Source: a virus
Reading direction: 5' to 3' (one strand)
DNA: 64,000 nt
UHGV virus genome: UHGV-0332176
This document shows positions 273 to 36,497 of this stretch, piece by piece. Positions within the stretch are counted from its first letter, which is position 1. Every line of letters starts with the position of its first letter. The position numbers and the translations under genes were made by a program. Below the pieces are notes generated by a model, which saw only the letters and a program-made list of their open reading frames with translations, was not told the origin of the DNA and ran no database searches.

Positions 273-3200
273 TTATGAGTTAGAAGATAATGTTCCTGTT
301 CTAACAATTCTAATTGGAATATAAATTTGTTCAACACCTTGAACAATTTCAATAGCTACTTCAGCCCATAATTCTTTACGACCAATTCTTTCAGTAGTAT
401 TAACTGAATTATCAGTAACTAATGTATAGTCATATAATTCATCTCTTGATACATAATCATTTAAGATTGCTCTTAATGCTTTATCAAAATCACGTCTTAA
501 TGCTTCTGTATTTGGTTGGAAGAAGAATGGTAAGCAAGCTGCATCCATTTCACGTTTTAATCTTAAAATTGTTAAGATTGCGTGTTCATCAGATAATGAT
601 GAAGTGTAATTATTTTCTGTATTTTCACCCCAGAATAATAATCCAGTATTACGTTGTGGCATAATTGGATTCATAGATTGAGCAGTAATAATTTCACCCA
701 AACTTTCTCTGATAGTTACTGGTGCATATTCATTTTCATCAGTAATATAACCAACAGATGCTAAATTTTTAACTTGACCATATTGTGTTCCTGCTGCAAA
801 CATACCTCTTGGTAATACCAATAAATTCTTCATTTTTGCAACAGATGAAGGAACAGCAATATCATCTCCATCAACATTTGAAGTTAATCCCATTGGTGGA
901 TATTGACGTGTTATATAAGCACTTCTAATAACACGACCATCTTCACCGTGTGAAGCTGCATTATTTTGATTTGAACCCCAAGCAATAATATCATTTGCTT
1001 TTGGTGCTAATCTTGCTGGTGTATCAGAAATGATATAAAACATTTCTTTTTTATCAGTATTTAATGCAATTAATTCATCATCTAATTCTGGATAACCTGG
1101 ACAAGTTGCATAGAAGAAATCATAATCTTGTGAGCGAATTGCATCATTAGAATTAATTGCTTCTGCTAATGCTCTTATAACCATTGCTCTTTGTGCTTTT
1201 CTACCAAATAATCCTGAACCATCTGTTGCATTACCTGAAATTGTTTGCCAACGAGTTGTTTTAGAATTTGTTGAAGAACCTGGTGTTGGGAATGCTTTTG
1301 AATTACCAACTGTGAAAGTGCTTCCTAATTCTTTAACAGCATTTTGATATTCATTTGTCATTTCTTTAACATTATTTGTTGAATATAATGTATTAAATAA
1401 TAACATACCAGCTGCATAAGTTTGTGGATTTGGACAATTAGGGTCAACATAATCTGAAATTAATAAATCAGCTTGTTTAGTTGAAAATGGAACGTGTGTT
1501 GAATCAGAATATGCTGGACCAGCGTTTTCACGAGCATCAGCAAATACAATACCTAAAGGAGTTGTTTGGTCAGTATTATCAACTAATTCCCATTCTCCTT
1601 CATAATATCTATAAATTGTTGGATAATTATTTGCTGCTGAATCAATCCATAAATCATTTTCTTGTAAAGCTGAACCATCTGAATGTTGAGTTGGTTGTTC
1701 AGATGTTACAAAAATATCTGCACATTCGTACATATTTTTATAACCTTTCCATTCATCACCATCATTTACCATAATATCAACATTTAATGCATCATTAAAC
1801 CATAATGTTCCATTTGTTGCAATCTCGGTTGGTTCATAAGAACTTGCAATATAAGTTGGTTCAGTCCATTTACCTAATTCACCTGAAGCAATACCAACAG
1901 TTTCTAAAATATTACCACCTTCAACATCTTGAAAATCAATAGTATTACCTGTTGAAGATACTAATCTTAAATAACCTTCAGTTGTTACATCAGCAACAAT
2001 TGTTGGAATTTTAGCATTATTAATTGCTTTTGCTAAATATTCAACTGTTGTTCCATATGCTCTAACAGTATATGTTTTAACTTCTGTTCCAATAAGTGTT
2101 CTAATTGTAATTGCTTGACCAGAAGTAATTGTTGGATTTGAAACTGTACCAACAACTTTTAATCCCAATGAACCATATTGAGCTAATTTAGTTTCAGCTA
2201 AATTTTCAGTATCATATTTAACAATAATTGAACTTGCATTTAATGAAGGTCCTAATACTCTTTCAGCTTCAATATAAGAACCATACATAGGCATTTTAAT
2301 TGTTGTCCAAGAATCAGTTGTTGAATTATATTGTTTCATAATATAATTAGCACCATTATTAGGTTCAGTAGTTTTAACCCAAATTGAACCTTGAACAGAA
2401 CCATTTGGAACTTGTGAATGTGTTTTATGAACTAAAGAAACAGCATTTACAACAGCTTCATCACCATTCATTGTAAAACCTAATGTTTCTAATGCTTTTC
2501 TTGAATCTTGTGAAAGAGTTAATAATGTTGCAGTATTTTTAATAACTAATGCATTATTTTCATTAACAGCAACAATATTTTCAATTGATGCATTATTAAT
2601 ATCTTTTACAGCATCATCAATTTTAGTTGTAGATGATACACCCGATAATGTTACTTCTGAACCATTAATAGTAATTTTAGCACCTGTATCATATGTACCA
2701 TTTACTTTACCTTTTGCACTTGATGGAAATTGAGCAATCCATTCATTAGAACCTAATTCATACCATTCACTTGCAATATTTTCATAAGCAACTTGTTTAT
2801 TACCTTTTGTTACAACAGCAATATCATTGTTAACACCATATGTTCCTAATGGTTTACCATCTTCACCAATTTCATCTGCTGATGGAAGTAATACATTTTC
2901 AATTCTATCCCAAGCTAAAGCTGGTCTTGTATTACCATTAGCTCTAAATAAACCATAAGAAGTTTCAGCTGTATCAAACCATAAAGTTTGATTTGGTACT
3001 TTACTTGTTGGTTCAGCTTGTGTAGCTTGTAATTGTTTTAAATCAATATCTGCTCTTAATGCATAAGCTATTGAAGAATTTCCTAAAGCATCATATAAAG
3101 CATACAAACCGACTTCATTTAATTCATCACCTTGTTGAACAGTTCCATCAATTGTTGTAAATGTTGGAACACCAAATGTATCAGTAACATCTTTTTGTGA

Positions 3201-3383
3201 AGTCATAACAAGTAATTCATTAGCAACTGATTTTGAAGTACCTGGTGCAATTTCACCTGTTTCTTCGTCAATAATTTTATCTTGTTCTGTCGCAAAGATA
3301 TAAAGAGGAATTATCGGAGAAACACCAGTTCCATATGATGATTCATCAATTATATCAATGTGAGTTTTTGCTAATTCTGACAT
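273..3383 (-). CDS. Tail sheath protein (unusually large, 1036 aa)
   Basis: The N-terminus (KDVTDTFGVPT) and C-terminal region (PGYPELDDEL...; ILTILRLKREM...RDFDKALRAILNDY...IPIRIV) resemble T4 gp18 sheath conserved N- and C-domains. It lies directly downstream of the terminase, as in T4. Confidence 0.7.
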   Translation of the reverse strand: MSELAKTHIDIIDESSYGTGVSPIIPLYIFATEQDKIIDEETGEIAPGTSKSVANELLVMTSQKDVTDTFGVPTFTTIDGTVQQGDELNEVGLYALYDALGNSSIAYALRADIDLKQLQATQAEPTSKVPNQTLWFDTAETSYGLFRANGNTRPALAWDRIENVLLPSADEIGEDGKPLGTYGVNNDIAVVTKGNKQVAYENIASEWYELGSNEWIAQFPSSAKGKVNGTYDTGAKITINGSEVTLSGVSSTTKIDDAVKDINNASIENIVAVNENNALVIKNTATLLTLSQDSRKALETLGFTMNGDEAVVNAVSLVHKTHSQVPNGSVQGSIWVKTTEPNNGANYIMKQYNSTTDSWTTIKMPMYGSYIEAERVLGPSLNASSIIVKYDTENLAETKLAQYGSLGLKVVGTVSNPTITSGQAITIRTLIGTEVKTYTVRAYGTTVEYLAKAINNAKIPTIVADVTTEGYLRLVSSTGNTIDFQDVEGGNILETVGIASGELGKWTEPTYIASSYEPTEIATNGTLWFNDALNVDIMVNDGDEWKGYKNMYECADIFVTSEQPTQHSDGSALQENDLWIDSAANNYPTIYRYYEGEWELVDNTDQTTPLGIVFADARENAGPAYSDSTHVPFSTKQADLLISDYVDPNCPNPQTYAAGMLLFNTLYSTNNVKEMTNEYQNAVKELGSTFTVGNSKAFPTPGSSTNSKTTRWQTISGNATDGSGLFGRKAQRAMVIRALAEAINSNDAIRSQDYDFFYATCPGYPELDDELIALNTDKKEMFYIISDTPARLAPKANDIIAWGSNQNNAASHGEDGRVIRSAYITRQYPPMGLTSNVDGDDIAVPSSVAKMKNLLVLPRGMFAAGTQYGQVKNLASVGYITDENEYAPVTIRESLGEIITAQSMNPIMPQRNTGLLFWGENTENNYTSSLSDEHAILTILRLKREMDAACLPFFFQPNTEALRRDFDKALRAILNDYVSRDELYDYTLVTDNSVNTTERIGRKELWAEVAIEIVQGVEQIYIPIRIVRTGTLSSNS

Positions 3384-3510
3384 ATTTTACTCCTATTAAA
3401 TTAAATTATTTTTATAATAAAAATAACTGATAAAAACTTTCAAAAAGTCTTTACATATATTTATGAATTAGGATAAAAATTGAGGGGTAAACAATTTATT
3501 AATTTAGGAG

Positions 3511-3539
3511 TTTGAAGTTATTTATTAAATAACTTCAAA
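3511..3539. promoter_or_regulatory. 29-nt perfect palindrome (14-bp arms) abutting RBS of small gene
   Basis: TTTGAAGTTATTTA-T-TAAATAACTTCAAA is followed by AAAGGGG and the ATG. The same architecture, with compensatory arm changes, occurs at 10498-10526. Confidence 0.5.
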
Positions 3540-3548
3540 GGGGTTAAG

Positions 3549-3926
3549 ATGGCTGATATAAGTAAAATAGATATGAAAAGAATCAATGGATTACTTGATA
3601 AATTAGAAGAAGTAACCAATAAAATTAATTCAATGAAATATGTTATTGAATCTGGTTCTAATGATAATGGTTGGTATCGTAAATGGAGTGATGGATTTAT
3701 TGAACAATGGGGTTTTCGCACTTCAAATACAACAAACCAAACAATTAATCTTCCAACTTCTTTTTCAAATACATCATATTATGTTAATTTTATTCAATAT
3801 CGTCCATTACAATCTTCTGCTGGTTGGGATTATCATTATGTCATCAGAACATCTGTTACAAAATCATCTTTCCAAATTAATGTTGCTGATACTGATGGAA
3901 TAAATTGGTATGCTTGTGGTTATTAA
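3549..3926 (+). CDS. Small protein, paralogue A of MADISKIDM...WYACGY family (N-terminal coiled-coil-like segment + beta-rich C-terminal domain)
   Basis: A 125-aa ORF with a strong RBS AAAGGGG. Its first ~57 nt and last ~25 nt are near-identical to the gene at 10536-10880, and it shares motifs NNWYR.WSDG.IEQ.G and WYACGY. Confidence 0.6.
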   Translation: MADISKIDMKRINGLLDKLEEVTNKINSMKYVIESGSNDNGWYRKWSDGFIEQWGFRTSNTTNQTINLPTSFSNTSYYVNFIQYRPLQSSAGWDYHYVIRTSVTKSSFQINVADTDGINWYACGY

Positions 3927-4999
3927 TAAAATTCATATAACATCTCTAATGAAACATTGCGAATATAACCCTTTTCATCCATAATTGCAACAGTATTTTC
4001 TCCACCAAGACAGTTATATTCTCTTTCAAATCTTTCAACACCAACTTTTTTAATTTCAGCTTTTGCCCAATTTTCATCTTTTAATGGACAAGCATCCCAT
4101 TTAACTAATTGACTTTGAAATCCATTATTTCCATAAGATTTTTTTTCAACAATATTAACATTTATATTTTCATTTCTTAACATATTAGCATAATCTTCTG
4201 CTTCTTCTTTTGTATGAAATAAATGAAAATCTCTATATAATTCTCCATTAATTTCTATTATATAATCATTAGGTATATCTATACCATAATCATCAATTTT
4301 ATTAATTGCCCCTGACCATAATCTATAAAATAAATCTGTTTCTGAAATAGGTGTTGAAGTAATAAATAATTTACCTTTTGTTGCAGATAATGTTGGTGAT
4401 AAAGCACCATAAAATTCTTCTTGTTTTTCTAATGCTTTATCCCCTGAATCTTGAACACCAATAAATGCAAATTCATCACAATAAACAATTGCAGGAGAAA
4501 TACCACGAGGAGCTTTAATAGTTGATGGGCGTACGTGAATTTCTGAACCATTATCAAATACCATTTTTGATTTATTATCTTCTATTAAACCTCTTTTAAG
4601 AAAATCTGGGCAATTTTCATAAACACCTTTTATTTTACCAAGATTTTCAGATGCTGCACGTAAATCTTGTGCAGTTACTAATATAATTGCGTGAGGATGA
4701 GTCATTGCGTACCATAATAAATAAATTGCTGTTGTAATCGTTTTACCATTCTGTCTGGAAAATAAAGATATAAGAGAATGATAGTTATGCATATTAAACA
4801 TCATTTCACGCTGATAATCAAATGGTATATATTGTTCCAAACCATTTCTATTAACCCAACAACAATGTTCTGCAAAAAATAATGCTCCATTTATAGGGTC
4901 ATAAACTTTTTTATAAATCATTTTTTGAGTATCTGTTAATTTTTTAAAAGATTTGGTTTTTTTAATAACACCAGTACCTTGTGGTAAAATAATTTTCAT
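3923..4999 (-). CDS. Terminase large subunit, ATPase domain only (T4 gp17-like)
   Basis: DYQREMM...SRQNGKT (Walker A) and VYCDEFAF (Walker B) match, and TSTPIS...FYRLW aligns with T4 gp17 residues ~130-360. The ORF ends where the gp17 nuclease domain would begin. Confidence 0.85.
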   Translation of the reverse strand: MKIILPQGTGVIKKTKSFKKLTDTQKMIYKKVYDPINGALFFAEHCCWVNRNGLEQYIPFDYQREMMFNMHNYHSLISLFSRQNGKTITTAIYLLWYAMTHPHAIILVTAQDLRAASENLGKIKGVYENCPDFLKRGLIEDNKSKMVFDNGSEIHVRPSTIKAPRGISPAIVYCDEFAFIGVQDSGDKALEKQEEFYGALSPTLSATKGKLFITSTPISETDLFYRLWSGAINKIDDYGIDIPNDYIIEINGELYRDFHLFHTKEEAEDYANMLRNENINVNIVEKKSYGNNGFQSQLVKWDACPLKDENWAKAEIKKVGVERFEREYNCLGGENTVAIMDEKGYIRNVSLEMLYEFY

Positions 5000-5017
5000 A
5001 TATTCTCCTTATAAAAT

Positions 5018-5025
5018 TATTTATA
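5018..5025 (-). promoter_or_regulatory. T4-type late promoter TATAAATA (minus strand) upstream of terminase
   Basis: TATTTATA on the plus strand lies ~19 nt upstream of the terminase ATG. An AAGGAG RBS sits between them, and a second copy occurs at ~5033-5040. Confidence 0.4.
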
Positions 5026-5102
5026 ATTAGCATATTTATAAAATATCTTGTTTTAAGTTTTATAATAAATATTCTTATAAAACATAGCATATAAGGTCAA
5101 TT

Positions 5103-6812
5103 ATGAAATATACATCACTTAAAAACGATATTGTGAATATTTTACATAGTTCTGATTATGACCTGATTTTAAAATTTTATGATGAAGATGGTCGTAATAC
5201 TCTTGATACCGAGAAATCTGAATGGTGTTATATAAGTAACTATAACATTATGGTTAAATTTATGAATGATGAAAACTCTGTTATACAATTATGGAAAGAT
5301 AAAAATACATTAGATGAAAATATGAAACATATTATTCAAAGAATTAGAGAATTATCAGGATTAAATGGAGTTCAAGTACAAATACGTATTTACGATGATT
5401 TAAATCAAAGAAAAATTTATAATTTAATTAAACGTGATATTATAAAACAAAAAGAAAGTGAAGAAATGGATGAATCAGTAACTAATAATAATCATATAAT
5501 AGTTGAAACCTTATACAATATTGTTAATACCGCCCGAGAAACCAAAAGACCATCTGATTTTTATATTTCAGAAACTATGCAATTAGAAAATACTCGTAAA
5601 ATTTTTTCTGAAATTATTAAAGAAATCTCTTGTTTAAATTCTTTTAAAAATATTAATATTACAGAAAAATTTAGTCCACTAATGTCATTAGATAATCTTG
5701 ATGATATTAAACAATTTACTGAATCATTAAATATTGATTCAAACATTTTATTAGAAAATATTAACAATATTAAAAATATTACATCTTTTGTTAAAAAAGA
5801 ATATTTAAATAATGGTGATTTTATTGTTTCAAAACCAAGAACATTGTTTGTTTTAGAAAATGTTAAAGTTTATACAGCTAAAGAAAAAAATAATAGAGAA
5901 AATTTAATTAATGCATATAATCAATTACTATCATTAACTAAAAACGCAACAAAAGGTACAGATATTATTCGTGAAATTAAAAATAATAATATCTGTGAAA
6001 CTTTTAATGTAACACGAAAAGAATTGATTGATTTATGGTTATCCAGAACTAATAATATGAAAATTGAAGCTAAAAAAGCATATGTTGTTGAAAATTATAA
6101 AGGAGAAAAAGTAATTTTCAATGAAGCAATGAGAAATGGAATTAAAGCATTAGCTCAATATATTAATAATGGTGGTTTAAGAGATGATAATATTTGTAAA
6201 AATATTATGTTAGAAACTGTTAAATATAATCAAATTGCTGACTTTATTAAAACTTATCAAGATAATTATAAAATTAGAAAATTTTTACCAAAATTTAAAA
6301 ACATTTTTACTGAAAATGCAAATAAATTAAATTCTGCATATTTTAATTTTAATAAAGAACTTTTTGAATCAGTTGATGAAGAAATTGATTATTCAGTTCA
6401 ATATAAAAAACTTTGTAATGAAATGGGTGTAGACCATCCTGCTATTAAATATCTTGCAATTGAAAATGCAAAAAAAGATGCTGAATATTGTTCAGTTTTA
6501 ATGGAACAAACATTAACTGATGAACAAATTCTTACTGAAGGTTTAAAACCATATATTCAAAATCCATTTACTTTATATAATGTTGTAAAAATTATTATGG
6601 ATGAACAAATATTATTAAATAAAACATTAAACGAAAGTATTAATGACAAAAATATTAAAACTATTGCATCGGATTTATATAATAAAATTTGTTTTGAAGA
6701 TAATATTGTTTTAATGCCAATTGCATCTTCTTTATTTAACATAATGCATACTAAAAATTTAAATGAAAATAAAATTACATATTTAAATACATTGATTAAA
6801 TATATAAAATAA
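5103..6812 (+). CDS. Hypothetical protein (569 aa, Asn/Lys/Ile-rich)
   Basis: A long uninterrupted ORF with no recognisable motifs. Confidence 0.5.
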   Translation: MKYTSLKNDIVNILHSSDYDLILKFYDEDGRNTLDTEKSEWCYISNYNIMVKFMNDENSVIQLWKDKNTLDENMKHIIQRIRELSGLNGVQVQIRIYDDLNQRKIYNLIKRDIIKQKESEEMDESVTNNNHIIVETLYNIVNTARETKRPSDFYISETMQLENTRKIFSEIIKEISCLNSFKNINITEKFSPLMSLDNLDDIKQFTESLNIDSNILLENINNIKNITSFVKKEYLNNGDFIVSKPRTLFVLENVKVYTAKEKNNRENLINAYNQLLSLTKNATKGTDIIREIKNNNICETFNVTRKELIDLWLSRTNNMKIEAKKAYVVENYKGEKVIFNEAMRNGIKALAQYINNGGLRDDNICKNIMLETVKYNQIADFIKTYQDNYKIRKFLPKFKNIFTENANKLNSAYFNFNKELFESVDEEIDYSVQYKKLCNEMGVDHPAIKYLAIENAKKDAEYCSVLMEQTLTDEQILTEGLKPYIQNPFTLYNVVKIIMDEQILLNKTLNESINDKNIKTIASDLYNKICFEDNIVLMPIASSLFNIMHTKNLNENKITYLNTLIKYIK

Positions 6813-6843
6813 GATAAAATTAAAAAATATAATAAAAATGCAC

Positions 6844-8373
6844 CTATACAGGTGCATTTAATTTTTGAACGACTTCTTTTGCAAATGTTTTTAATAGTTT
6901 CAATACATAAGTATCTTCACCATTTTTCTTTTCCTTAATTTCTTCTCTTTCTTCCTCTGTTAAAGGTCTAAAAGGATTATCATTTTTAGACAAAGAAGCA
7001 TCAATTTGAAGTTGTCTATTTAACATATTAAATCCTGTTAAATTTGTAATAGCTTTATGACCACCTGACATTGTTTTAATAACATCAATTAAAGATACTC
7101 GTTGATTATTCATAAATCTAATCATTCTCATTGATTGTTCAGCACGAGCAGGATTCATATTTTCACACCAATATTTTGACATTCTTAAACTCATTGAACG
7201 ACTTATTTTATTTTCAGGGTCAACATCAAATTCTGTTCTACAATTTTTAAAAATACTTTCAAAATCTAAAATATTAAAACCAATACAATATTTTTCTTTA
7301 ACATCTTCAATATTTCTTTCAAATTCTGATTTTAATGCCAATAATGAAACTGATTTATTATTCAGCCATTGAGTTTTTGAAAATTGATTTAAAAACATAT
7401 CGTGTAAAACAATTTTTCCTAAATCAACATTATCATTAACAGTAAGATTCCACGGATTACGAGATACTTGCATCATACCAATTTCATCCCAAATCATAAT
7501 AAAATATTTTGCTTGTGGAAAAATTCTAAAAGCTGTATAACGTTCATATGAACCAATTCTTTTCATATAACCACCACCAACTTGTACAATACAATCACCA
7601 ATTAAAATTGATTGCCCATTTTTCAATGTATTAATGTCTTCACAATTTAAACTTACTTTACTTTTATTTTTTTGGTCTTCAAAATATTTTTCAACATTTT
7701 CATTAATTTCAGTTGGTAATTTATATATTCTATAATCTTCACTATGATTATCAATAGTCCATTTTAATAACTGATTATAAATTGATTCTAATGATGGTTT
7801 ACAATTCATAACTAAATTAGTTAACCACGCATTTCTATTTTTATATGTAAGTAATAATTTATTACAAGCTAATGCCATTTCTAAATGACGCTTAAAATTA
7901 TCTTTATTTTTATCACATTTAAAAACTGCATTACCAACTTCTTTTGGATTAATATTATATTCAACAAAACTTGCTGAATCAATCATATCAATTGCTTTCT
8001 CATCATCACTTGAAAAAATACCATTTCCAATAATTGAAGAAATTGTTGATGCATTAGATTTAGAATGTCTAAAATGAACAGATGCATCATTATAAACTAT
8101 CTGACTTTGATGATGGTCGGTATGTATTTGAATAAATGGTTTTCCGTGTGAAAAATCAACCATTACTCCCATATTTCCTTCTTCAGGAGCAGAAATATTA
8201 TATTCATCACTTCCATAATTTAATTTATGGGCAGCAACAACTTTAATTCCATAACTATTAAGATATTCTTTCATAGCTAATGCACTTGTTACACCATCTA
8301 AATCAATATGAAAATAAATTTCTGCTTGCTTATATTTTTTAGCTAATTTTTTAATATTTCTAATACCAGACAT
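6844..8373 (-). CDS. DHH-family phosphoesterase (RecJ/NrnA-like)
   Basis: HIDLDG (DxD), VMVDFSHG, IHTDHHQ (DHH) and VGGGY (GGGH-like) appear in the canonical order. The tool ORF begins with TTG at 8415; the ATG at 8371-8373 with a purine-rich RBS is the likelier start. Confidence 0.55.
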   Translation of the reverse strand: MSGIRNIKKLAKKYKQAEIYFHIDLDGVTSALAMKEYLNSYGIKVVAAHKLNYGSDEYNISAPEEGNMGVMVDFSHGKPFIQIHTDHHQSQIVYNDASVHFRHSKSNASTISSIIGNGIFSSDDEKAIDMIDSASFVEYNINPKEVGNAVFKCDKNKDNFKRHLEMALACNKLLLTYKNRNAWLTNLVMNCKPSLESIYNQLLKWTIDNHSEDYRIYKLPTEINENVEKYFEDQKNKSKVSLNCEDINTLKNGQSILIGDCIVQVGGGYMKRIGSYERYTAFRIFPQAKYFIMIWDEIGMMQVSRNPWNLTVNDNVDLGKIVLHDMFLNQFSKTQWLNNKSVSLLALKSEFERNIEDVKEKYCIGFNILDFESIFKNCRTEFDVDPENKISRSMSLRMSKYWCENMNPARAEQSMRMIRFMNNQRVSLIDVIKTMSGGHKAITNLTGFNMLNRQLQIDASLSKNDNPFRPLTEEEREEIKEKKNGEDTYVLKLLKTFAKEVVQKLNAPV

Positions 8374-8440
8374 TTTACTTCTTTCATTAAAATTAATATT
8401 ATCATTAAAATACAATATCTTTTAAATTTGTCAAGTATTT

Positions 8441-8452
8441 TATTTATAAATA
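8441..8452. promoter_or_regulatory. Back-to-back TATTTATA/TATAAATA motifs (divergent late promoters)
   Basis: TATTTATAAATA contains TATAAATA on both strands. It lies ~25 nt upstream of the 8477 gene (+), and the DHH gene is upstream on the minus strand. The motif CTTGACAAAT also occurs on the minus strand at ~8425-8436. Confidence 0.35.
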
Positions 8453-8476
8453 TTTAATATAATTAAAGGGGCATTA

Positions 8477-9838
8477 ATGAATATTTTATTAGAGCAATTA
8501 TTAATGAGTGAATTTACATTTGGTTTTGAATTAGAAGCCTATGTTGACCCATATAAAATTCCATTAAAAAATAATGAAAAATGGGAAAATATTAAACATT
8601 TTCCAACAAATAAAGTAATAACTTATATTGATAAACCATCCCTATTTAAAAATTTAGAATATTTTTTTAAAAATAATTTTTTTGGAATTAATAGTAATTT
8701 AACAGTTGAAGAAGATAATTCATTAAAATATAATGGATTTGAAATGCAATCTCCTGTTTTTAATTTAACTCCATTAAATATTTCACAATGTATAAAATTT
8801 TTATCTTCATTAAATAAAAATGAATATAAAATTTATACTGATAATAGTTGTGGTTTTCATACTCATTTTGCTTTTCCCGAAATAACTCCTGAAGATATAT
8901 ATTGGATTGAATGTCATTTGGCATTAGATAATCAAATGAAAGAAATTTTATCTTCAATTACAACAGAAGATAATGTAACTATTAATTTTATCACCGAAAA
9001 ATATTCTTCAGATGAATATTTAGATGATTTAAAAAATGCTATATTAAATGATAATTTTGAAGAAATTGCATATATTATGTCAGAAGAAAAAATGAGATTG
9101 TTAAGAAATCATCCTCAAGGAACTATTGAATGGAGAGGTCCAAGAAATTTTCTAAATAAACAAAATGTTAATGACATTAAAACATTTTTTATGAAAATAT
9201 ATACTTTTGCAAAATGGATTTCTGAAATATTAGATAAAAAAGAAATTAATGGCTATGATAAACAAACATTTTTAAATTTAATTAATGAATTTCATCCTCA
9301 ATACAAAAAAACATTTAAAAAATCATCAAAAATTGAAAAAATTATTGATAAAATCATTAATAAACCATCTTCTTTATTATATGCAAATTTTTCTTTACAC
9401 GATACTATTGATATTATTGATAAACTTTTTAAAAAATTAGGAGCAGAAAAATTTAATTCATTTATTATGAATTTTGCAACACGTGAAATTCCATCAAAAG
9501 TTTTAACAGGAATTTTAATGGTTGACCCAACTTTTTTTCGTTATTCTATTCAACATCAATCATTGCCAATTAAAGAATTAAATATAATAAATCCATTTTA
9601 TATTGCAGATATTTTTGAACAAAATAAAAAATATATTTCATTAAACGACATAAAAGATATTATTGAAAATGGAGAATTAACATATTTAACGATTTTTCCA
9701 ATTCTTTCAGAAATTTCAAAAAAACTCCATAAAAATATTTTTACTAAAAAAATATTATCAGCAATTTCACTAAAATATAATGTACCATATAATGAAGTTG
9801 TTCAAGATGCACAAGAATTTATTATTGAATTTCATTAA
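8477..9838 (+). CDS. Hypothetical protein (453 aa); N-terminal FGFELEAYV resembles the start of phage amidoligase-type enzymes
   Basis: ORF with an AAAGGGG RBS. The motif resemblance is weak. Confidence 0.45.
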   Translation: MNILLEQLLMSEFTFGFELEAYVDPYKIPLKNNEKWENIKHFPTNKVITYIDKPSLFKNLEYFFKNNFFGINSNLTVEEDNSLKYNGFEMQSPVFNLTPLNISQCIKFLSSLNKNEYKIYTDNSCGFHTHFAFPEITPEDIYWIECHLALDNQMKEILSSITTEDNVTINFITEKYSSDEYLDDLKNAILNDNFEEIAYIMSEEKMRLLRNHPQGTIEWRGPRNFLNKQNVNDIKTFFMKIYTFAKWISEILDKKEINGYDKQTFLNLINEFHPQYKKTFKKSSKIEKIIDKIINKPSSLLYANFSLHDTIDIIDKLFKKLGAEKFNSFIMNFATREIPSKVLTGILMVDPTFFRYSIQHQSLPIKELNIINPFYIADIFEQNKKYISLNDIKDIIENGELTYLTIFPILSEISKKLHKNIFTKKILSAISLKYNVPYNEVVQDAQEFIIEFH

Positions 9839-9869
9839 TAAAAAGAGGGATAAAAATCCCTCTTTTTTA
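9839..9869. terminator. Bidirectional terminator between convergent genes
   Basis: The inverted repeat AAGAGGGA-TAAAAA-TCCCTCTT is followed by a T-run. Confidence 0.6.
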
Positions 9870-10442
9870 AACTATTTGAATTCTTAATAAGTAATCAAAT
9901 ACCAATGTAATATTTGAAGTTTTAGATATTGGATAATGGCAAATATGAGTTATTAAATCACCTTTGCTTGTTCTCAATCCCACTTCAGAAAATGTATATT
10001 CCGAAATAATTTGTGAATCATTATTTAAAACATTTTGTTCAGTTGGCTCACCTTTTTCTAATGTACAATGAACTAAAATATCCGAAAATACATTACCAGT
10101 AACGTGAGATACTGTCATATAATTACGAGTTTTCTCTAAATTATCAGTTATAGAATGTTGGTCAACAACTTTATAATATGTTTCATTATATAAAGAAGCT
10201 GTACGACCAATTGTTTGTGGTGTACTATATAAAAATTCATTTGATGCATTTACACGAACACCACCATTACCAAATACTAATTGAGTAATATAACCACCAT
10301 TATTTGATAATGAATTAGCTAATGCAATTGAAAAATTTTCAGGGTGAATATCATTATGAACATCTAATAAAACTTTTCCTGTTTCTTCTTCGTGAATTCT
10401 TAAATGACCTTTAATTTTTGGTTGACCATAATCTTTAAACAT
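9867..10442 (-). CDS. Hypothetical protein (191 aa), possibly structural
   Basis: ORF with no motifs recognised. Confidence 0.5.
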   Translation of the reverse strand: MFKDYGQPKIKGHLRIHEEETGKVLLDVHNDIHPENFSIALANSLSNNGGYITQLVFGNGGVRVNASNEFLYSTPQTIGRTASLYNETYYKVVDQHSITDNLEKTRNYMTVSHVTGNVFSDILVHCTLEKGEPTEQNVLNNDSQIISEYTFSEVGLRTSKGDLITHICHYPISKTSNITLVFDYLLRIQIV

Positions 10443-10497
10443 AAATTATCCTTTATTACATATACAAATATTTATTATTAAAAGATTATAAAAAATA

Positions 10498-10526
10498 ATT
10501 TGTGGATATTTATTAAATATCCACAA
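10498..10526. promoter_or_regulatory. 29-nt perfect palindrome abutting RBS of paralogue B
   Basis: In TTTGTGGATATTTA-T-TAAATATCCACAAA the central TATTTATTAAATA is identical to the element at 3511-3539, while the arms differ with compensatory changes. Confidence 0.5.
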
Positions 10527-10535
10527 AGGGGATAA

Positions 10536-10880
10536 ATGATGGCTGATATAAGTAAAATAGATATGGAAAGAATCAATGGATTAATTGATAAATTAAATTC
10601 AATGAAATATGTTATTGAAACTTTATCAGAAGAAAATAATTGGTATAGAATTTGGTCAGATGGTTGGATTGAACAAGGTGGTTATATGCCAGCAGGAATT
10701 TCTGATACAATAACATTTATAAAACCGTTTACAAATACTGAATATTTTTCTGTTTTTACACCATATAAAAATATGGGGTCACACATTGTATATATAAAAT
10801 CCAAATATAATGATAGAATTTCAATATATAATGGAGATAGTAAAGAAAATCCAATTTCTTGGTATGCTTGTGGATATTAA
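10536..10880 (+). CDS. Small protein, paralogue B of MADISKIDM...WYACGY family
   Basis: A 114-aa ORF whose 5' and 3' ends are near-identical at nucleotide level to 3549-3926. The middle is diverged (~45% aa identity). Confidence 0.6.
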   Translation: MMADISKIDMERINGLIDKLNSMKYVIETLSEENNWYRIWSDGWIEQGGYMPAGISDTITFIKPFTNTEYFSVFTPYKNMGSHIVYIKSKYNDRISIYNGDSKENPISWYACGY

Positions 10881-10909
10881 AAAAGAGAGGATTAATCCTC
10901 TCTTTTTTA
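10880..10909. terminator. Bidirectional terminator overlapping nrdD stop codon
   Basis: The inverted repeat AAGAGAGGAT-TA-ATCCTCTCTT is followed by TTTTT. Confidence 0.6.
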
Positions 10910-13045
10910 ACCGTGTAATGAATCATCAATAAATGTTCTACGTTGAAATTCCCAATTTCTTCTTGTTGGATTCCACGAATCAACGGGAACAAAGAAACCA
11001 ACAACACGAGTAAAATATTGCATATGTTCATTATGACCACATTTTGAACAACTTGCAACTTTATGGTCATAAACAGCACCGCATTTTGGACATTTTGAAT
11101 ATACTGAATTTAATACAAAATGTTCACAACCACATTTAATAGCATATAAAATAATTTTTCTATTTTGTGCAGATGTTGTTTTAGAACCCAATTGAGCGTG
11201 AACAATACCGCCACCTGTTAATAATTGATTATATTTGCCATCAGCTTCTAATTTTTCCCAAATAGTTGCATCTTCCCATAATGGAACAAATTGATTAGCA
11301 TATAATGGAGCATCAATAATATTTTCATTGAAAATTAAGTTATCAACAGTTGCTAATCTAACAGCATAAGATTCACCAGGAATTTGTTCAATATTAGAAA
11401 ATAAACCTAATTCTTTTGCATATTCAGCAGAATGTTTATTTAAATATACTAAATAATCATTCATAACATCTTGACCTTCAGTAATTTCATCTGCAAATTT
11501 AGTTTCAAGAATTTTCTTTGCTTCAACAACACCCAAAATACCAAATGTTGAAAATAATCTATCCATACGAATCCAGCCACGAGTAATAAATGGTTCAAGA
11601 CCTTTTTCTTCCATTTTACCAATTAATACTTTATGAGCTTTTAAAACTTTTGCTGCTCCACGAATTCTTTTATCAAGAATATGATAAAAATCCTCTAATG
11701 AATTTGCTTCATAAGCAATACGAGCAAAATTAATAGTTACAACACGGTGAGAACCCATTGAAACAGTTGAACCACCAAATGAATTTACAGAAGAACCCAT
11801 ATCAAGTAATTCAGCATCATTAATTAAACGACAACAAGATGCAACTTTTGTCCCCTTTGAAGTAAAAATATTAAATCTTGTAATATCTCGTTGACATACA
11901 AAATCAAAGAATTTTTCATCTAAAACATTACCTTCATCATCTTTTGATATATTCATAGTTGTAACAGGAAAACGATAAGGAATACCATTATTTAATGGGT
12001 CACCTTTTTCGTGAAATTTAGCATATATTTCTTGTAATTCACTAATATAATTAATGACAAATTCTTTCCATTCATCAGCAGACATCTTATCTTCTAAACC
12101 ATTATCAATAGCAATATCTTTTTTATTTGCAAAATACCATCCATAATTATCTTGACCTATTAAACCAGCTAATTTAACTCTATCAAATAAAGAAATATTA
12201 GTGAATGGAGATTCTACACCATTTCTTGATAAATGGTTTACTGAATGAACAAATGTTTGAAAACAATTTTCAATATATTTTCTCATTTTTGGGTCATTTT
12301 TAACAACTTCAAATGGAACACGTTGTTTATAAATTAAAATATGAGCAATATCAAGGAAAAATGTTCCAACAGCAATAGCACCTGCTAAATGTGAAGACAT
12401 TTGATGAACTGTTTCATCTAATGCTGAAATATAAGAATCAACTCTATGAACTGGTGCAGATGGTAATTGACCAAATTTACGACCTTCAAGAACTAATTTA
12501 GAAGCATCTAATGCCCAGCAGTAAGGAATTAAAATATTTGTAGAATCTGATAAACCTAATGAAAAATCATATAAATCACCTGATAATACTTTTGCTTCAG
12601 CTTGACCATATAAATCTTTCATAACACCATAAAGCATATGATAACCAATTAATTTACGGTTAGAAGCTGTAATTTCATTATTTACACCAGCAATTGTTTT
12701 TTCATTTTTATTAGAATTATCGTCAATAGATACATCATTAACACGAGAATCTAAAATTTTAGCAAAATTTGCCAAGGTATCAAAATTAGTTGCATCTAAT
12801 CCGTGAATTTTTAAAATTTTTGAAGTTAATTCTTTTAATTCACCATTTGAAAAACCATATTTCTTTTTCAATGCTGATGCTAATGTTTTTTTAATATTTT
12901 TAATAGTTCTTGTAGTTTCAGCATTAATTAAAATATCATCAGAAACTTTATCTAATTCTTTCTTAAAATCTTCATCTTCATAATAAGAATCAACAATTGT
13001 TGGACTCTTAACATTTAATATTTTTTTAACTGCCAATTCAGACAT
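10907..13045 (-). CDS. nrdD: Anaerobic ribonucleoside-triphosphate reductase (class III RNR)
   Basis: The C-terminal Zn ribbon CPKCG...CSKCG is followed by the glycyl-radical motif RVVGFF. The internal GGSTVSMGSHRVVTINFARIA aligns with T4 NrdD LGVVTLNLPRIA. Confidence 0.9.
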   Translation of the reverse strand: MSELAVKKILNVKSPTIVDSYYEDEDFKKELDKVSDDILINAETTRTIKNIKKTLASALKKKYGFSNGELKELTSKILKIHGLDATNFDTLANFAKILDSRVNDVSIDDNSNKNEKTIAGVNNEITASNRKLIGYHMLYGVMKDLYGQAEAKVLSGDLYDFSLGLSDSTNILIPYCWALDASKLVLEGRKFGQLPSAPVHRVDSYISALDETVHQMSSHLAGAIAVGTFFLDIAHILIYKQRVPFEVVKNDPKMRKYIENCFQTFVHSVNHLSRNGVESPFTNISLFDRVKLAGLIGQDNYGWYFANKKDIAIDNGLEDKMSADEWKEFVINYISELQEIYAKFHEKGDPLNNGIPYRFPVTTMNISKDDEGNVLDEKFFDFVCQRDITRFNIFTSKGTKVASCCRLINDAELLDMGSSVNSFGGSTVSMGSHRVVTINFARIAYEANSLEDFYHILDKRIRGAAKVLKAHKVLIGKMEEKGLEPFITRGWIRMDRLFSTFGILGVVEAKKILETKFADEITEGQDVMNDYLVYLNKHSAEYAKELGLFSNIEQIPGESYAVRLATVDNLIFNENIIDAPLYANQFVPLWEDATIWEKLEADGKYNQLLTGGGIVHAQLGSKTTSAQNRKIILYAIKCGCEHFVLNSVYSKCPKCGAVYDHKVASCSKCGHNEHMQYFTRVVGFFVPVDSWNPTRRNWEFQRRTFIDDSLHG

Positions 13046-13079
13046 TTAATTCTCCTTAATCTTATCTCATAAAAATATA

Positions 13080-13592
13080 TTATTTAAAATAGTATAAACC
13101 ATTTTCACTCAAACAACAATAATTTGAGTCAAAAAGTTTTTGATTAGTTGAAGCAAATTTCATATAATCATCAGTTTTTTCAGAAATTTGTGAAATTTTT
13201 TCATCATATAAACCACATTTTAAAAATGTAAATCCTGTAATATTTAATAATTTTACATATTCAACATCGTGTCCTGTATAAACACAAACTTCAAATGGTG
13301 ATTTTTCCAAAAATTCTTTTGTAAATTGATAATTAAAGCACGATAAAGGGTCGCCACCAGATAGTACAACTTTATTTGTATGATGTCTTTTTGATAAAAT
13401 TAATAATTCATTAATTAATTCATCAACTGTATATTCTTTTGTTTCTTCCTTAAAATCTGGATTTTTAAAACCTGGATTTTGACATTTCGGGCATCCGTTA
13501 TCACAACCCATCATTACAACAACTAAACTACAATTTTCTGTATCAGGATAATCAAGCCAAGTTGAAGTAATTGGTTGTAAAATTCGTGTCAT
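13080..13592 (-). CDS. nrdG: Anaerobic RNR activating enzyme (radical SAM)
   Basis: Carries CDNGCPKCQN (CxxxCxxC). It is ~170 aa and lies immediately downstream of nrdD. Confidence 0.85.
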   Translation of the reverse strand: MTRILQPITSTWLDYPDTENCSLVVVMMGCDNGCPKCQNPGFKNPDFKEETKEYTVDELINELLILSKRHHTNKVVLSGGDPLSCFNYQFTKEFLEKSPFEVCVYTGHDVEYVKLLNITGFTFLKCGLYDEKISQISEKTDDYMKFASTNQKLFDSNYCCLSENGLYYFK

Positions 13593-14121: not shown

Positions 14122-14207
14122 TTTGACCTCATATTTTTCTTAATATTAACTCAAAATTAAATAGATTTTCAATAATAAATATCTATATTATATAAAGGTT
14201 AAAAAAT

Positions 14208-19396: not shown

Positions 19397-19430
19397 AAAC
19401 TCCTTATAAGATTTTTTATAAGGAGTTTTT
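19397..19430 (+). terminator. Intrinsic terminator; 3' arm doubles as RBS of next gene
   Basis: The repeat AAACTCCTTATAA...TTATAAGGAGTTT is followed by TTTTT, immediately before the ATG at 19431. Confidence 0.5.
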
Positions 19431-21173: not shown

Positions 21174-22517
21174 ATGAAATTTAATGAATATTTTAAGTTA
21201 AAAGATATAACAATTAATGTTACAAATTCTTGTAATTTAAATTGTGCTTATTGTTTTGAGCATAATAAAAATGGTTTAAAAATGTCAACTAATATGGTTG
21301 AGAAAATTATTGATAAAAGTTATGAAAATTATGTTTTAAATAATGAAACAAAATTTCCTTTTGTTGTTAATTTTTTTGGTGGAGAACCATTTTTAGCATT
21401 TGATGTAATGGAACACGCAATGAAATATGCCAATAATAAAAAATATAATATTTCATTTGGTGTAACAACAAATTTAACGATGCTTACAGACCATATGATT
21501 GATATTATTGAAGAATATGAATTGGGATTATTAGTGTCAGTTGATGGTATTAAAAAAATACACGATAGAAATCGTTGTAATTCTTATGACATTGTTATAT
21601 CTAATCTTAAAAAATTAATAGATAGAGGTTTAAAACATCTTATTGAAATTAGAATGACTGTTATGCCTGCTGATTTAAAAGATTTATTAAGTGGTATTCA
21701 AGAATTATATAATTTAGGAATTGATAATATTGCTCCTGTTCCTGTTACCGATACAAAATGGGAAGATTATGATTATATGAATTTAAGAGATGAAATGATT
21801 AAAATTTGGGAATGGGCATTTTTAATTTATAATGATGAAAACAATAAAAGAAATCTATCTATTAAATGTATAGATGATTATTTAGAAATGGTGTTATGCC
21901 CTGATATTTTATTACCTGAACAACGTAAAGTTTGTACAGCAGGAACATTTTCATCTTGTTCTTTTGGAGTTGATGGTGATATACTTCCTTGTCATCAACG
22001 TCATACAATTTCTGACCATTATGATGAATTAGTTATGGGTAATATTAATGATGATGAAATTAAAGAAATTAATTTTAATAATCAAACAATTGCTAACGAA
22101 AATAAAAATTGTGATGTATGTAATGCAAGAGCAATTTGTAAAGGGGGATGTCCATCTGAAAATTTAACATTGAATAAAGATGGAAATATTATGAATGATG
22201 TTCAATGTAATGTTTTAGAATATATGGTTGATGTTGCACAGCAATATCAATGGTGGCTTTTAAATGATATGTTACCTAATATTCGTTCTCGTAAATTAAA
22301 TATTTTAAGTCAAAATTTAAAATTATTAGGAATGTTATTAGATATTATTAAAAATGAAAGAAGTATTCAAGATAATGAAATTCAATTATTAAAATTTTAT
22401 GAAAAGTTATCTGATATTGAAGGAATACTTTTGCCTAATTTTAGAGATGCAATAAATTTTATAATTTATGGTATGGTAAATATTATTGATGAACAAATTA
22501 AAAATGAAGGTAAATGA
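21174..22517 (+). CDS. Radical SAM / SPASM-domain enzyme (maturase-like), paralogue 1
   Basis: The N-terminus has TNSCNLNCAYCFE (CxxxCxxC), and the C-terminal auxiliary-cluster region has CDVCNARAICKGGCPSE (SPASM-like). Confidence 0.8.
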   Translation: MKFNEYFKLKDITINVTNSCNLNCAYCFEHNKNGLKMSTNMVEKIIDKSYENYVLNNETKFPFVVNFFGGEPFLAFDVMEHAMKYANNKKYNISFGVTTNLTMLTDHMIDIIEEYELGLLVSVDGIKKIHDRNRCNSYDIVISNLKKLIDRGLKHLIEIRMTVMPADLKDLLSGIQELYNLGIDNIAPVPVTDTKWEDYDYMNLRDEMIKIWEWAFLIYNDENNKRNLSIKCIDDYLEMVLCPDILLPEQRKVCTAGTFSSCSFGVDGDILPCHQRHTISDHYDELVMGNINDDEIKEINFNNQTIANENKNCDVCNARAICKGGCPSENLTLNKDGNIMNDVQCNVLEYMVDVAQQYQWWLLNDMLPNIRSRKLNILSQNLKLLGMLLDIIKNERSIQDNEIQLLKFYEKLSDIEGILLPNFRDAINFIIYGMVNIIDEQIKNEGK

Positions 22518-23335
22518 TGGCTGATAGTAATATTGTTAATCGTCAAATATATCAAGATATTAGAGATACTTTTAAACAACGAGCAATGAATTGGAACGGT
22601 GTTTGGAAAGTTTGGAATAATCAATCTCCTGATTGGGGCGGACGTTGGGTTGGTGGTTGGAAAGGACCAGCAATTAAGATGCACGATACTATTCCTGAAT
22701 CAGAAAGGGATAGAATTCAAAAAGAATATACTGGTTTATCAGGTGAAGTTAATCAAGTTATTGTTGAAGAATCATCTAAAATTCATACATTAGGTAATGA
22801 AAATAATATTCGTAGAGCGGTTATTAGTTTAAATAATGTGACAGATGCAAATATCGGTGTTTATTTAGGAAGTCAAAAATTACCAAAAATTGAGATTAAC
22901 ACAATTGGAACAGCTGGAAATTTTAATCCTGATGTAAATATTGCTAATACATCTGATGATTATACTGTAAACAAATATAATACTTCATATGTTAGAGATA
23001 TACCAGCTAATAAAGTTGTTAATACAACAACAGGTCAAGAAATACCATTAAATTCTGTTATTACAAAAGATATTAATCAAAAAACTCAAATGGCAGGAAC
23101 ATCTGACCCAACTCAATCATCGCAAGCTGAAGGTATTGTTAAAAAATCAGATTATGAATTGATTAGAACAGTTTTAGAAAGAATCAAAGATTGTTTAATT
23201 CAAAAAAATTCTTGGTTTACTTATAATGGTATTTGTAGTCGTAGTTGTCAAATAAATTGCCAAAATAGATGTCAAGTTTCTTGTCAGGCTTGTAATACTA
23301 AACAATGTCACGACCAAAATTGTGGTACTTCATAG
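22514..23335 (+). CDS. Protein with cysteine-repeat C-terminal tail (candidate substrate of adjacent rSAM/SPASM enzymes)
   Basis: The start overlaps the upstream stop (ATGATGG). The C-terminus is CSRSCQINCQNRCQVSCQACNTKQCHDQNCGTS (8 Cys in 30 aa, CxxxC x4), and the body is Asn/Thr/Ser-rich. Confidence 0.6.
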   Translation: MMADSNIVNRQIYQDIRDTFKQRAMNWNGVWKVWNNQSPDWGGRWVGGWKGPAIKMHDTIPESERDRIQKEYTGLSGEVNQVIVEESSKIHTLGNENNIRRAVISLNNVTDANIGVYLGSQKLPKIEINTIGTAGNFNPDVNIANTSDDYTVNKYNTSYVRDIPANKVVNTTTGQEIPLNSVITKDINQKTQMAGTSDPTQSSQAEGIVKKSDYELIRTVLERIKDCLIQKNSWFTYNGICSRSCQINCQNRCQVSCQACNTKQCHDQNCGTS

Positions 23336-23347
23336 GATAAAAATTAA

Positions 23348-25710: not shown

Positions 25711-25736
25711 ATATTTGTATTATAAAGGAAGTAAAA

Positions 25737-26889: not shown

Positions 26890-26923
26890 AAAATCTCCAT
26901 AATTATAATTATGGAGATTTTTT
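26890..26923 (+). terminator. Intrinsic terminator
   Basis: Perfect palindrome AAATCTCCATAATTAT/AATTATGGAGATTT followed by TTTT. Confidence 0.6.
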
Positions 26924-30140: not shown

Positions 30141-30190
30141 GTTCTGGTGCTATTTTTAAAAAATAGCACCATAAATATTTTTAGAACAAA
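30141..30190. promoter_or_regulatory. Nested perfect palindrome GGTGCTATTTTT/AAAAATAGCACC flanked by TTTTGTTCT...AGAACAAAA
   Basis: A 12-bp inverted repeat with no loop, plus an outer 9-bp inverted repeat. It lies 30 nt upstream of the 30217 gene. Confidence 0.45.
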
Positions 30191-31160: not shown

Positions 31161-31178
31161 ATTCTCCCTTTATTTTTT
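31147..31178. terminator. Bidirectional terminator between convergent genes
   Basis: AAGGGAGAAT-AA-ATTCTCCCTT lies between A- and T-runs. Confidence 0.6.
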
Positions 31179-31665: not shown

Positions 31666-31756
31666 TAGAAATCCTTAATTTTTAATTATAATAATATTTA
31701 TTGAAAAGCAAATGAATGATGTAGTAGAATAAATAACAAAGTTTAATGAGGATATT

Positions 31757-36447: not shown

Positions 36448-36497
36448 AATTTTTCCAATATAAATATGTTATATTAATATTTATTTAAGGTATAATA

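Follow-up and report, generated by a model that had tools for sequence, protein, structure and literature searches.

Perfect palindromes with a late-promoter-like centre precede a family of small, exchangeable fibre-tip genes in a human-gut jumbo phage

A 64,000-nt stretch of virus genome UHGV-0332176 (the window) contains two small paralogous genes, A and B, each preceded by a perfect palindrome that abuts its ribosome-binding site (RBS). Comparison with related genomes indicates that these palindromes keep both an invariant centre and perfect symmetry with the sequence of the arms left free, and that the middle of gene A has been exchanged as a block between otherwise almost identical phages. 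The encoded proteins are predicted to be free-standing Gp53-like_C fibre-tip domains on a short coiled coil and thus new members of a known domain family; this part of the account, swappable fibre tips, is well supported by computation. For the palindrome itself the favoured role, held with evenly balanced confidence, is that of a promoter or operator acting on DNA for a regulon of fibre genes. The two units are made up as follows.

3511–3539: palindrome A, TTTGAAGTTATTTATTAAATAACTTCAAA, divided as TTTG-AAGT-TATTTA-T-TAAATA-ACTT-CAAA; 13-bp centre at 3519–3531, central T at 3525
3540–3548 (+): Shine-Dalgarno GGGG (3540–3543) and a 5-nt spacer, outside the predicted stem
3549–3926 (+): gene A, 125 aa, predicted free-standing tail-fibre tip with an N-terminal coiled coil and a Gp53-like_C beta domain
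3549–3711 (+): conserved 5' module of gene A, MADISKIDM.RINGLLDKL..NSMKYVIE..WYRKWSDGFIEQWG; presumed anchor and coiled coil, and 5' homology arm for core exchange
3712–3902 (+): variable core, presumed receptor-binding surface, swapped as a block between otherwise 99.7–99.9% identical genomes
3903–3926 (+): conserved 3' end, N-W-Y-A-C-G-Y-stop, 3' breakpoint of the core exchange
10499–10527: palindrome B, TTTGTGGATATTTATTAAATATCCACAAA, divided as TTTG-TGGA-TATTTA-T-TAAATA-TCCA-CAAA; central base at 10513
10528–10538 (+): Shine-Dalgarno GGGG (10528–10531) and spacer, with two in-frame ATGs at 10536 and 10539
10539–10880 (+): gene B, 113 aa (114 aa from 10536), paralogue of A and one heptad shorter

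Small fibre-tip proteins and the exchange of their cores

The original prediction had likened both proteins to receptor-binding or fibre-tip domains, and profile, structure-database and fold comparisons agree with it. Protein A matched the Pfam family PF21882 (Gp53-like_C) over the full profile, positions 1–84, with 38.6 bits (E 1.5e-9; curated cut-off 24.9). Protein B taken alone reached 20.0 bits, under the cut-off, and is homologous to A (46% identity, E 2e-31). The PHROG matches of the fibre-tip proteins were the C-terminal ends of tail-fibre families, and a phmmer search of the PDB with protein A gave a sole meaningful sequence match, 4mtm, the AP22 gp53 fibre (E 6e-6, residues 12–125). 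The AlphaFold model of A, built on a 30-sequence alignment, has a predicted local distance difference test (pLDDT) score of 85 and consists of a helix at residues 9–28 and eight strands; its best Foldseek matches were the C-terminal parts of the R1 and R2 pyocin fibres (E 5e-5) and 4mtm (E 8e-5, template-modelling score 0.54). Rather than closing a long fibre protein, the domain here forms most of a 113–125 aa protein in which a coiled coil of about 35 aa precedes it; one relative, contig L086, has a 260-aa version of a Gp53-like_C-type fibre protein.

Given that the family is much shorter than usual fibres (102–183 aa), it is possible that the small proteins are not receptor-binding tips of the virion and instead act as decoys, assembly factors, superinfection-exclusion or anti-defence proteins that reuse the fibre-tip fold. 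However, this is very improbable for four reasons: first, it is the distal receptor-binding domains of fibres to which the proteins are homologous. Second, the other genes preceded by the palindrome are of Collar, Gp10_C or BppL_N type, all receptor-binding or baseplate proteins. Third, a late-type control region and a place beside the sheath gene suit structural genes. Fourth, a PADLOC search for defence systems returned a 12-bit noise match only, and the earlier suggestion of an anti-defence module is left with nothing beyond it.

A database search with the fibre-tip protein returned 71 homologues with a near-invariant N-terminus and variable cores. Nearly all start M-x-D-[IV]-S-K-I-D-M-E-R-I-N-G-L-L-D-K-L..N-S-M-K-Y-V-I-E and end W-Y-A-C-G-Y; between these ends the cores look unrelated and the length of the coiled coil varies in heptad steps. 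The further copies that the original prediction had proposed to seek in related genomes are thus plentiful, at about 12 units per genome: on contig 152025 (286.8 kb), 12 separate units were counted between 45 kb and 283 kb. A Collar domain replaces Gp53-like_C in some units, and one relative has Gp10_C and BppL_N domains; judged by their sequences, the genes of all four domain types would be of receptor-binding or baseplate type. In other gut contigs the slot occupied by gene A, between the tail-sheath gene and TerL-N (the N-terminal part of a divided terminase), holds a 133-aa variant, P0009, 56% identical to A.

Replacement of the core was seen directly at this slot. Between the window and contig L233 the flanks are identical at 997/1000 and 999/1000 positions, and the identity spans the palindrome, the RBS and the N-terminal module up to about 3712 (...EQWG), falls to ~40% over 3712–3902, and is high again at AATTGGTATGCTTGTGGTTATTAA. 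Because the low identity is confined to 3712–3902 between near-identical flanks, the core was exchanged as a block with its breakpoints in the conserved ends, which is the cassette exchange that had been proposed.

Aligned segment by segment, the two window copies give a similar picture. Upstream of the palindrome A and B share 48% of nucleotides, within it 23 of 29 (three compensated pairs differ), and over nt 1–57 of the coding sequence 55 of 57, much as the ~57 nt of near-identical 5' coding sequence first noticed. After nt 57 comes a 21-nt indel of one heptad (3606–3626, missing from copy B), then the NSMKYVIE segment (24/24 nt), a further 63 nt at 65% and the core at 48%, below both ends, so that the middle is diverged as claimed; the last 24 nt agree at 21 positions and the downstream sequence at 45%. 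At the 5' end, the same codon is used at 22/22 identical residues compared with 15.3 expected from the codon usage of the genome (P ~1.5e-4), which argues for a recent exchange of DNA. The near-identity of the 3' ends stands as an observation, but with 4/6 codons the same and 4.2 expected it reflects protein conservation and codon bias, no more. Furthermore, A and B have 0 synonymous differences in their first 19 codons and B has 5 from its own positional orthologue, L030, which points to exchange between paralogues inside one genome. Two slots of contig 152025 (L023 and L027) repeat the pattern, with 56/57 nt identical at their 5' ends, and the 5' ends are on this evidence homogenised within the genome by gene conversion.

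The conserved 5' module and the WYACGY 3' end serve as homology arms through which ectopic recombination between paralogues homogenises the 5' ends and replaces the core. The shared N-terminus would dock interchangeable tips on a common site of the virion, and core swaps would change the host or receptor range. No second copy of either core was found in the window as a template repeat of the kind used by a diversity-generating retroelement (DGR), and no reverse transcriptase or invertase was found among the neighbouring genes scanned, a scope of 64 kb of the ~288 kb genome. The fibre paralogues are direct, dispersed and complete genes, an arrangement that is not that of a DGR or of Gin/Cin invertase switching. 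In a group of related genomes (L016–L021, 1–3400; L021:6049–6387) a fibre-tip paralogue directly follows the phage Cpn10/Cpn60 (GroES/GroEL) genes and a strong terminator, and one variant contig of this group has a response-regulator/GerE gene nearby.

Receptor-binding proteins set the host range of a phage, and this phage holds a large kit of miniature tips on one anchor module. The population data catch the exchange of the binding core and thereby provide a concrete, testable model of specificity change in gut jumbo phages; a conserved anchor with a swappable core of ~65 residues is also a natural scaffold for engineering.

A fixed centre within freely varying, symmetric arms

Palindromes A and B each consist of perfect 14-nt arms around one central base and are followed directly by GGGG and then by ATG (3549; 10539 or 10536), and the claim of perfect 29-nt palindromes with an identical centre abutting the RBS holds at 3511–3539 and 10499–10527. 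Their arms differ at 3 positions each (AAGT/ACTT against TGGA/TCCA), every difference being compensated in the opposite arm as had been stated. The 13-mer centre occurs exactly twice in the window, in these two palindromes, and at slot A both arms and centre were the same in 18/18 other contigs. A scan with the variable arm positions set to N added 10 sites from three related contigs, and each of them was complementary; a second such scan found more family sites, again all complementary, together with two unrelated matches that were non-complementary. A metagenome scan with the centre plus AAAGG as query, which served as a null distribution and not as a population count of the centre base, gave among the matches listed 117 chance matches to the centre, with arms of only 6–10 nt, and one family member. 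Given the short arms of the chance matches and the complementarity of the sites found with free arms, the palindromes are far beyond chance. A search led by the protein found a perfect palindrome just before the RBS of every family member with a readable start, so that the element does accompany the homologues in related phages, and all of the 39 distinct palindrome sites in the 1.35 Mb of sequence examined precede fibre-like genes.

Fourteen arm variants were identified, including TTTA-/TTCA-type outer ends and three with 15-nt arms, in which both arms had gained a base together. Statistics of covariation were based on 11 distinct 29-mers among them: 154/154 base-pair cells were Watson-Crick with no G·T and no mismatch, six pairs had changed on both sides (25 cells) and none on one side, and 0/500 shuffles reached the observed score. 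In contig L086 (30% G+C), whose TerL-N is 65% identical, the same slot reads TTCAGCGAA-TATTTATTAAATA-TTCGCTGAA: the centre is kept, the arms are unrelated and G+C-richer, and the palindrome stands 23 nt before the 260-aa fibre gene, the N-terminus of which is unrelated. The centre and the perfect symmetry are therefore conserved and the sequence of the arms is free. The arm variant was considered as a marker of gene type and rejected, since AAGT arms stand before Gp53-type and Collar-type genes alike and one slot has different arms across lineages. In a further relative (L098, contig 3300028888_000425, 30% G+C), TTCATTGA-TATTTA-N-TAAATA-TCAATGAA lies between divergent fibre-like genes that both start MA(T)DLSLIPQNRI, and this palindrome may serve both directions.

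The central base is a mutation hotspot, with T/A flips between genomes that are 99.9% identical. The window and contig L022 (99.9% identity over 2084 nt) differ at two positions, one of them 10513, T in the window and A in L022, and contigs 152892 and 152025 (L036/L037, 3396 nt) likewise have two differences, one being a T/A change at the centre; by hand count about 85% of slots have T on the gene strand. When replication switches template at inverted repeats, the arms are homogenised and the spacer is inverted (PMC8604942, PMC8794818), and the features seen here, perfect arms, apparent compensatory changes and a centre flip that matches spacer inversion, are those of template-switched repeats. 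This suggests that the palindrome extrudes as a hairpin in DNA in vivo. The compensatory changes had been taken in the original prediction to indicate selection on structure or on a dyad-symmetric site; the covariation itself holds across all 14 arm variants, but it is no proof of selection on pairing, because template switching can also produce it. Template switching is a mutational process, however, and leaves unexplained why the element is retained before every fibre gene at a fixed length. This retention across deep divergence, the fixed arms of 14–15 nt and their enrichment in G+C argue for a function.

Candidate roles of the palindrome

T4 late promoters have the sequence TATAAATA and depend on gp55. 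The window contains 44 copies of ATAAATA, of which 24 lie in non-coding DNA (7.7% of the window) and 16 are correctly oriented 10–45 nt before a start. The fuller late motif, aATAAATAt, was noted 17–33 nt before about 20 starts, for example at 5065–5072, 8446–8453, 14175–14182, 25707–25714 and 36460–36467 on the plus strand and at 31694–31701 and 41814–41821 on the minus strand. Sigma-70-like TTGACAA-N17-TATAAT promoters, which look like early promoters, precede other genes (e.g. 28939, 42960, 53493, 56400), and these two classes suggest from their sequences that the phage runs a T4-style early/late programme. One copy of the late motif lies upstream of each palindrome.

3457–3464 (−): late promoter motif ATAAATAT, serving the divergent tail-sheath gene and not gene A
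10468–10475 (−): late promoter motif ATAAATAT, serving the divergent 191-aa gene (9867–10442), 26 nt before its ATG

Read on the other strand as TATACAAATATTTATT, this motif was considered as the promoter of the fibre genes and rejected: genes with co-directional neighbours fix the orientation of the motif, so that the real form is ATAAATAT on the coding strand and the upstream copy belongs to the divergent neighbour. The palindrome is the sole conserved element upstream on the strand of the fibre gene. Counted by hand, the distance from its centre to the ATG is 23–28 nt in the main clade and 35–39 nt at a further three sites, of which one belongs to the main clade and two to relatives; we count these distances as within the 24–40 nt of canonical late promoters. 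Furthermore, the palindrome has a strong terminator upstream of it in two slots: in L016 the two are 5 nt apart, and in L238 the terminator runs directly into the left arm. These terminators leave no room for any other promoter, so transcription of the fibre gene must start within the element; that they abut the palindrome, and that G·U pairs are absent, favours a role at the level of DNA over a transcribed 5' hairpin.

A promoter or operator on DNA is accordingly the role preferred here, though we would put its chances only at about half. The invariant centre, TATTTA-N-TAAATA, overlaps the T4-like late -10 element of the phage (consensus aATAAATAt), and the transcript would begin close to CAAA, within the right arm or immediately past it, with a short leader starting at the RBS. 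The 8–9 variable positions per arm would be kept symmetric by pairing in a hairpin or cruciform or by the fit to a symmetric dimer, and template switching during replication may help to maintain the symmetry and also flip the central base. Several points weigh against this account. At T-centre slots, both window copies included, the gene strand reads TTAAATA, which shows no enrichment before genes, and the canonical ATAAATA points in the direction opposite to the fibre gene; in L022 the canonical ATAAATA is on the gene strand. A start ~7 nt past TAAATA would leave 2–3 nt before the RBS, which is unusually short. The sequence examined, that is, the 64 kb window and scattered loci, yielded neither a candidate regulator nor a late sigma factor like gp55. 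Template switching might also have produced the perfect symmetry of the arms without any selection (PMC8604942, PMC8794818). On the protein side, it is homology alone that suggests that the small proteins attach to the virion and bind a receptor.

A second possibility is that the palindrome works as RNA, its 13-bp stem in the 5' untranslated region blocking 5' decay, insulating the RBS, or forming a translational-repressor operator, for which the operators of T4 gene 43 and MS2 are the comparison. Stable folds are predicted (-11.9 and -13.6 kcal/mol, z = -2.4 and -3.2), the hairpin adjoins the RBS at most main-clade sites, the bias of the central base towards T suggests strand-specific reading, and some units (L039, L040, L044) follow a co-directional gene without a terminator, where co-transcription is possible. 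Nevertheless, this role is unlikely. There is no conserved promoter upstream of the left arm, and in L016 and L238 a terminator lies 0–5 nt before it; 0 G·U among 154 cells with 25 double changes is unusual for an RNA stem; 14–20 nt separate the palindrome from the RBS in L086 and L098, both relatives, and in paralogue L012. Rfam 15 gave no match at gathering thresholds across the window and none at E <= 1 over 3380–3700, which also counts against an RNA element. As DNA, the hairpin of palindrome A has -9.6 kcal/mol and as RNA about -11, and the RNA and DNA hairpins overall are moderately stable (-8.5 to -13.6 kcal/mol). In the predicted folds the GGGG is unpaired and not sequestered, and the earlier idea that the hairpin occludes the RBS fails on this point. 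A simple terminator scan flagged palindrome B on the minus strand (13 pairs, 3 G-C pairs, tail TTATTTTTTA) and palindrome A on neither strand, and no U-run follows the palindromes on the gene strand.

The orientation of the late motif raises another possibility, namely that the element is a back-to-back bidirectional late promoter with overlapping divergent -10s, the far strand bearing ATAAATA and the gene strand TTAAATA, in which only the centre and the start-site regions function and the symmetry of the arms comes purely from template switching. The canonical ATAAATA does face the divergent neighbour at most slots, most units do lie in divergent intergenic regions, the flips of the central base suit template switching, and this process is documented to homogenise arms and invert spacers (PMC8604942). 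Against this, the divergent neighbours have a canonical promoter of their own nearer to their start, and at the co-directional slots L016, L238, L039, L040 and L044 an outward promoter would run antisense or into a terminator. In addition, arms held at 14–15 nt and G+C-richer than the genome suggest selection for a stable stem, and the association is strictly with fibre genes. On balance a neutral symmetry of this kind is distinctly unlikely.

The exchange of cores might itself be the purpose of the palindrome, if the hairpin were extruded in replication and cut by the SbcCD-like (T4 gp46/47-type) nuclease of the phage, so that the break starts conversion between paralogues and leads to core exchange. 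The phage encodes SbcD- and SbcC-like proteins, conversion tracts begin right after the palindrome (48% identity upstream, 96–100% in the first coding segments), core replacement was observed, and the centre flips indicate the formation of DNA hairpins. Even so, such a recombination hotspot is quite improbable: gp46/47 homologues are general recombination genes of large myophages and non-specific, and palindromes of 29–31 bp are short for SbcCD cleavage in vivo. It would also leave unexplained the exact 13-bp centre across relatives of 65% identity and the fixed distance to the start codon.

Returning to the promoter or operator on DNA, a special form of it deserves mention, in which the promoter depends on the hairpin or cruciform structure and the asymmetric central base acts as a stochastic switch. 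Hairpin-mediated template switching would invert the centre between T and A and so bring the canonical late -10 (aATAAATA) onto the strand of the fibre gene from the opposite one. The observations behind this form are that in each of two independent 99.9%-identical genome pairs the central base is one of just two differences, and that in the ordinary late promoters of the phage the position before TAAATA is under strong constraint to be A. We regard this form as improbable. If it were true, each of the ~12 tip genes could be tuned up or down independently, and clonal phages would display differing mixtures of tips, a bet-hedging of host range.

Whatever its mode of action, the control element is unusual: its 13-bp centre is invariant and its arms are free in sequence yet perfectly symmetric, it is restricted to fibre genes, and it is kept at 65% TerL-N identity. 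A structure-dependent promoter or operator, if true, would represent a new type of late-gene control in phages and a clean natural case in which to separate selected covariation from covariation that arises by template switching.

Genomic setting and related systems

The phage that carries the window is an uncultured human-gut jumbo myophage of ~288 kb and 25% GC, the G+C across the window being 22–30%. The 1036-aa tail sheath encoded in the window has 31–36% identity to the sheaths of Rak2/121Q/GAP32-type and other jumbo phages. Protein A and the sheath occur in exact form in 320 and 339 blocks of human-gut assemblies, many of them contigs of 284–289 kb, and the phage is thus very prevalent in the human gut. 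Megablast of 3000–11500 against the cultured-phage collection gave no match, and tblastn with protein A against the same collection gave three weak matches only. The window encodes an anaerobic ribonucleotide reductase NrdD and its activase NrdG (10907–13592, −), and the presence of this reductase suggests that the host is anaerobic. A palindrome and fibre unit also occurs on a 2.8 kb contig (L241, JAEWRE010000027.1) binned in a Bacillota metagenome-assembled genome, a weak hint at the host, and a 283.5 kb copy of the phage (L242, CASEYV010000001.1) is deposited as an 'uncultured bacterium' bin.

Both fibre genes had been placed beside structural genes; this is so for A, which adjoins the tail sheath, but the downstream neighbour of B is NrdD. 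The stop of gene A overlaps that of the convergent TerL-N gene (3923–4999, −; 358 aa, ATPase domain). TerL is split over two genes: the C-terminal end of TerL-N, CLGGENTVAIMDEKGYIRNVSLEMLYEFY, reads as an N-intein of ~29 aa (about 3926–4012), and TerL-C (376 aa, L243:9952–11082; in the genome of the window beyond its left end, past the sheath gene, a 210-aa gene and a 5'-3' exonuclease gene) begins with ~108 aa ending ILVHN|CEFLG, with Pfam matches to Intein_splicing (2e-5) and Terminase_6C (1e-5). From these sequences TerL appears to be divided by an atypical split intein, which resembles the AceL-TerL, GOS-TerL and Cat-TerL split inteins (PMC11766414), and the gap between the two halves contains fibre gene A. 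The 191-aa neighbour of gene B (9867–10442) was considered as the missing nuclease half of the terminase and rejected, as it has no Pfam or PDB match and the true C-terminal half is encoded outside the window, past its left end.

Elsewhere in the window, SbcD-/SbcC-like (gp47/gp46-type) nuclease genes are found at 41875–42900 and 44814–46973 (+), together with genes for an NAD-dependent DNA ligase, an RNA ligase and two DNA methyltransferases (among 26924–28858; 54453–55688; 46970–47713; 48362–49255). Three radical-SAM paralogues (21174–22517, 23348–24550 and 24538–25710, all +) surround a 273-aa open reading frame (22514–23335) with a cysteine-rich C-terminus, ...CQNRCQVSCQACNTKQCHDQNCGTS, and 21174–25710 (+) is a possible cluster for peptide modification or a cofactor. 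Intergenic DNA holds about a dozen more perfect palindromes, with arms of 10–17 nt, most of them flanked by A- and T-runs like bidirectional terminators: 224–257, 6836–6859, 9840–9867, 10877–10910, 19397–19428, 26890–26921, 30145–30171, 31148–31171, 52597–52625, 57115–57140, 61737–61764 and 62915–62950. The right arm of the palindrome at 26890–26921 contains the GGAG RBS of the DNA ligase gene (ATG at 26924). One of these palindromes closes the unit of gene B.

10877–10910: perfect 34-bp palindrome with A-run and T-run flanks, which looks like a bidirectional intrinsic terminator common to gene B and the convergent nrdD

Among known control elements, the palindrome resembles the late promoters of T4, in that the phage uses aATAAATAt before many starts and the centre of the palindrome contains the motif; the late promoters of T4 are non-palindromic, however, and most sites here have the canonical reading on the strand opposite to the fibre gene. 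The virion RNA polymerase of phage N4 uses hairpin-form promoters, and these offer a mechanistic analogy only: a conserved apex, stems of variable sequence, action at the level of DNA and a start ~11 nt from the centre are shared, but the N4 stems are 5–7 bp and drive early genes. A literature search brought up no earlier account of a late-type palindromic element like this one. The promoter early stem-loop (PeSL) cassettes of T4-like phages, composed of a terminator stem-loop and an early sigma-70-type promoter, flank ORFans in hyperplastic regions (PMC2839356, PMC4122927). Like the element described here, they are short conserved regulatory motifs repeated genome-wide beside variable genes and linked to shuffling by homologous recombination (PMC2839356, PMC4122927). 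The present element differs in being a single perfect palindrome with a late-type centre before fibre genes only, with no TTGACA/TATAAT pair and no terminator composite, and the breakpoints, about 3712 and 3903, are inside the gene and not, as PeSL junctions are, inside the motif.

For the proteins, a parallel is found in the gp38 adhesins of T2/T6 type, which attach through a conserved N-terminal module and carry, in a specificity domain, variable, swappable segments between conserved motifs (PMC3157838). The family described here resembles them as a small protein with a conserved N-terminal module, a specificity domain and modular swapping (PMC3157838). There is no relationship of sequence or fold between the two, gp38 occurs once per genome, in the fibre locus, whereas the present family is scattered over the genome in many copies, and attachment of the small proteins to a fibre tip is here, unlike for gp38, argued from homology. 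The profile and fold matches are to the C-terminal domain of AP22 gp53 (PF21882, 4mtm) and to the 'foot' of the R1/R2 pyocin fibres (6cxb, 6ct8, 6cl6), and the match to 4mtm and the pyocin fibres spans the coiled coil together with the beta domain, taking in both the WYR.WSDG.IEQ.G start and the W-Y-A-x-G-Y end. In AP22 gp53 and the pyocins this domain is the end of a long fibre; here, by contrast, it is a stand-alone protein of 110–135 aa, present as about a dozen dispersed paralogues per genome.

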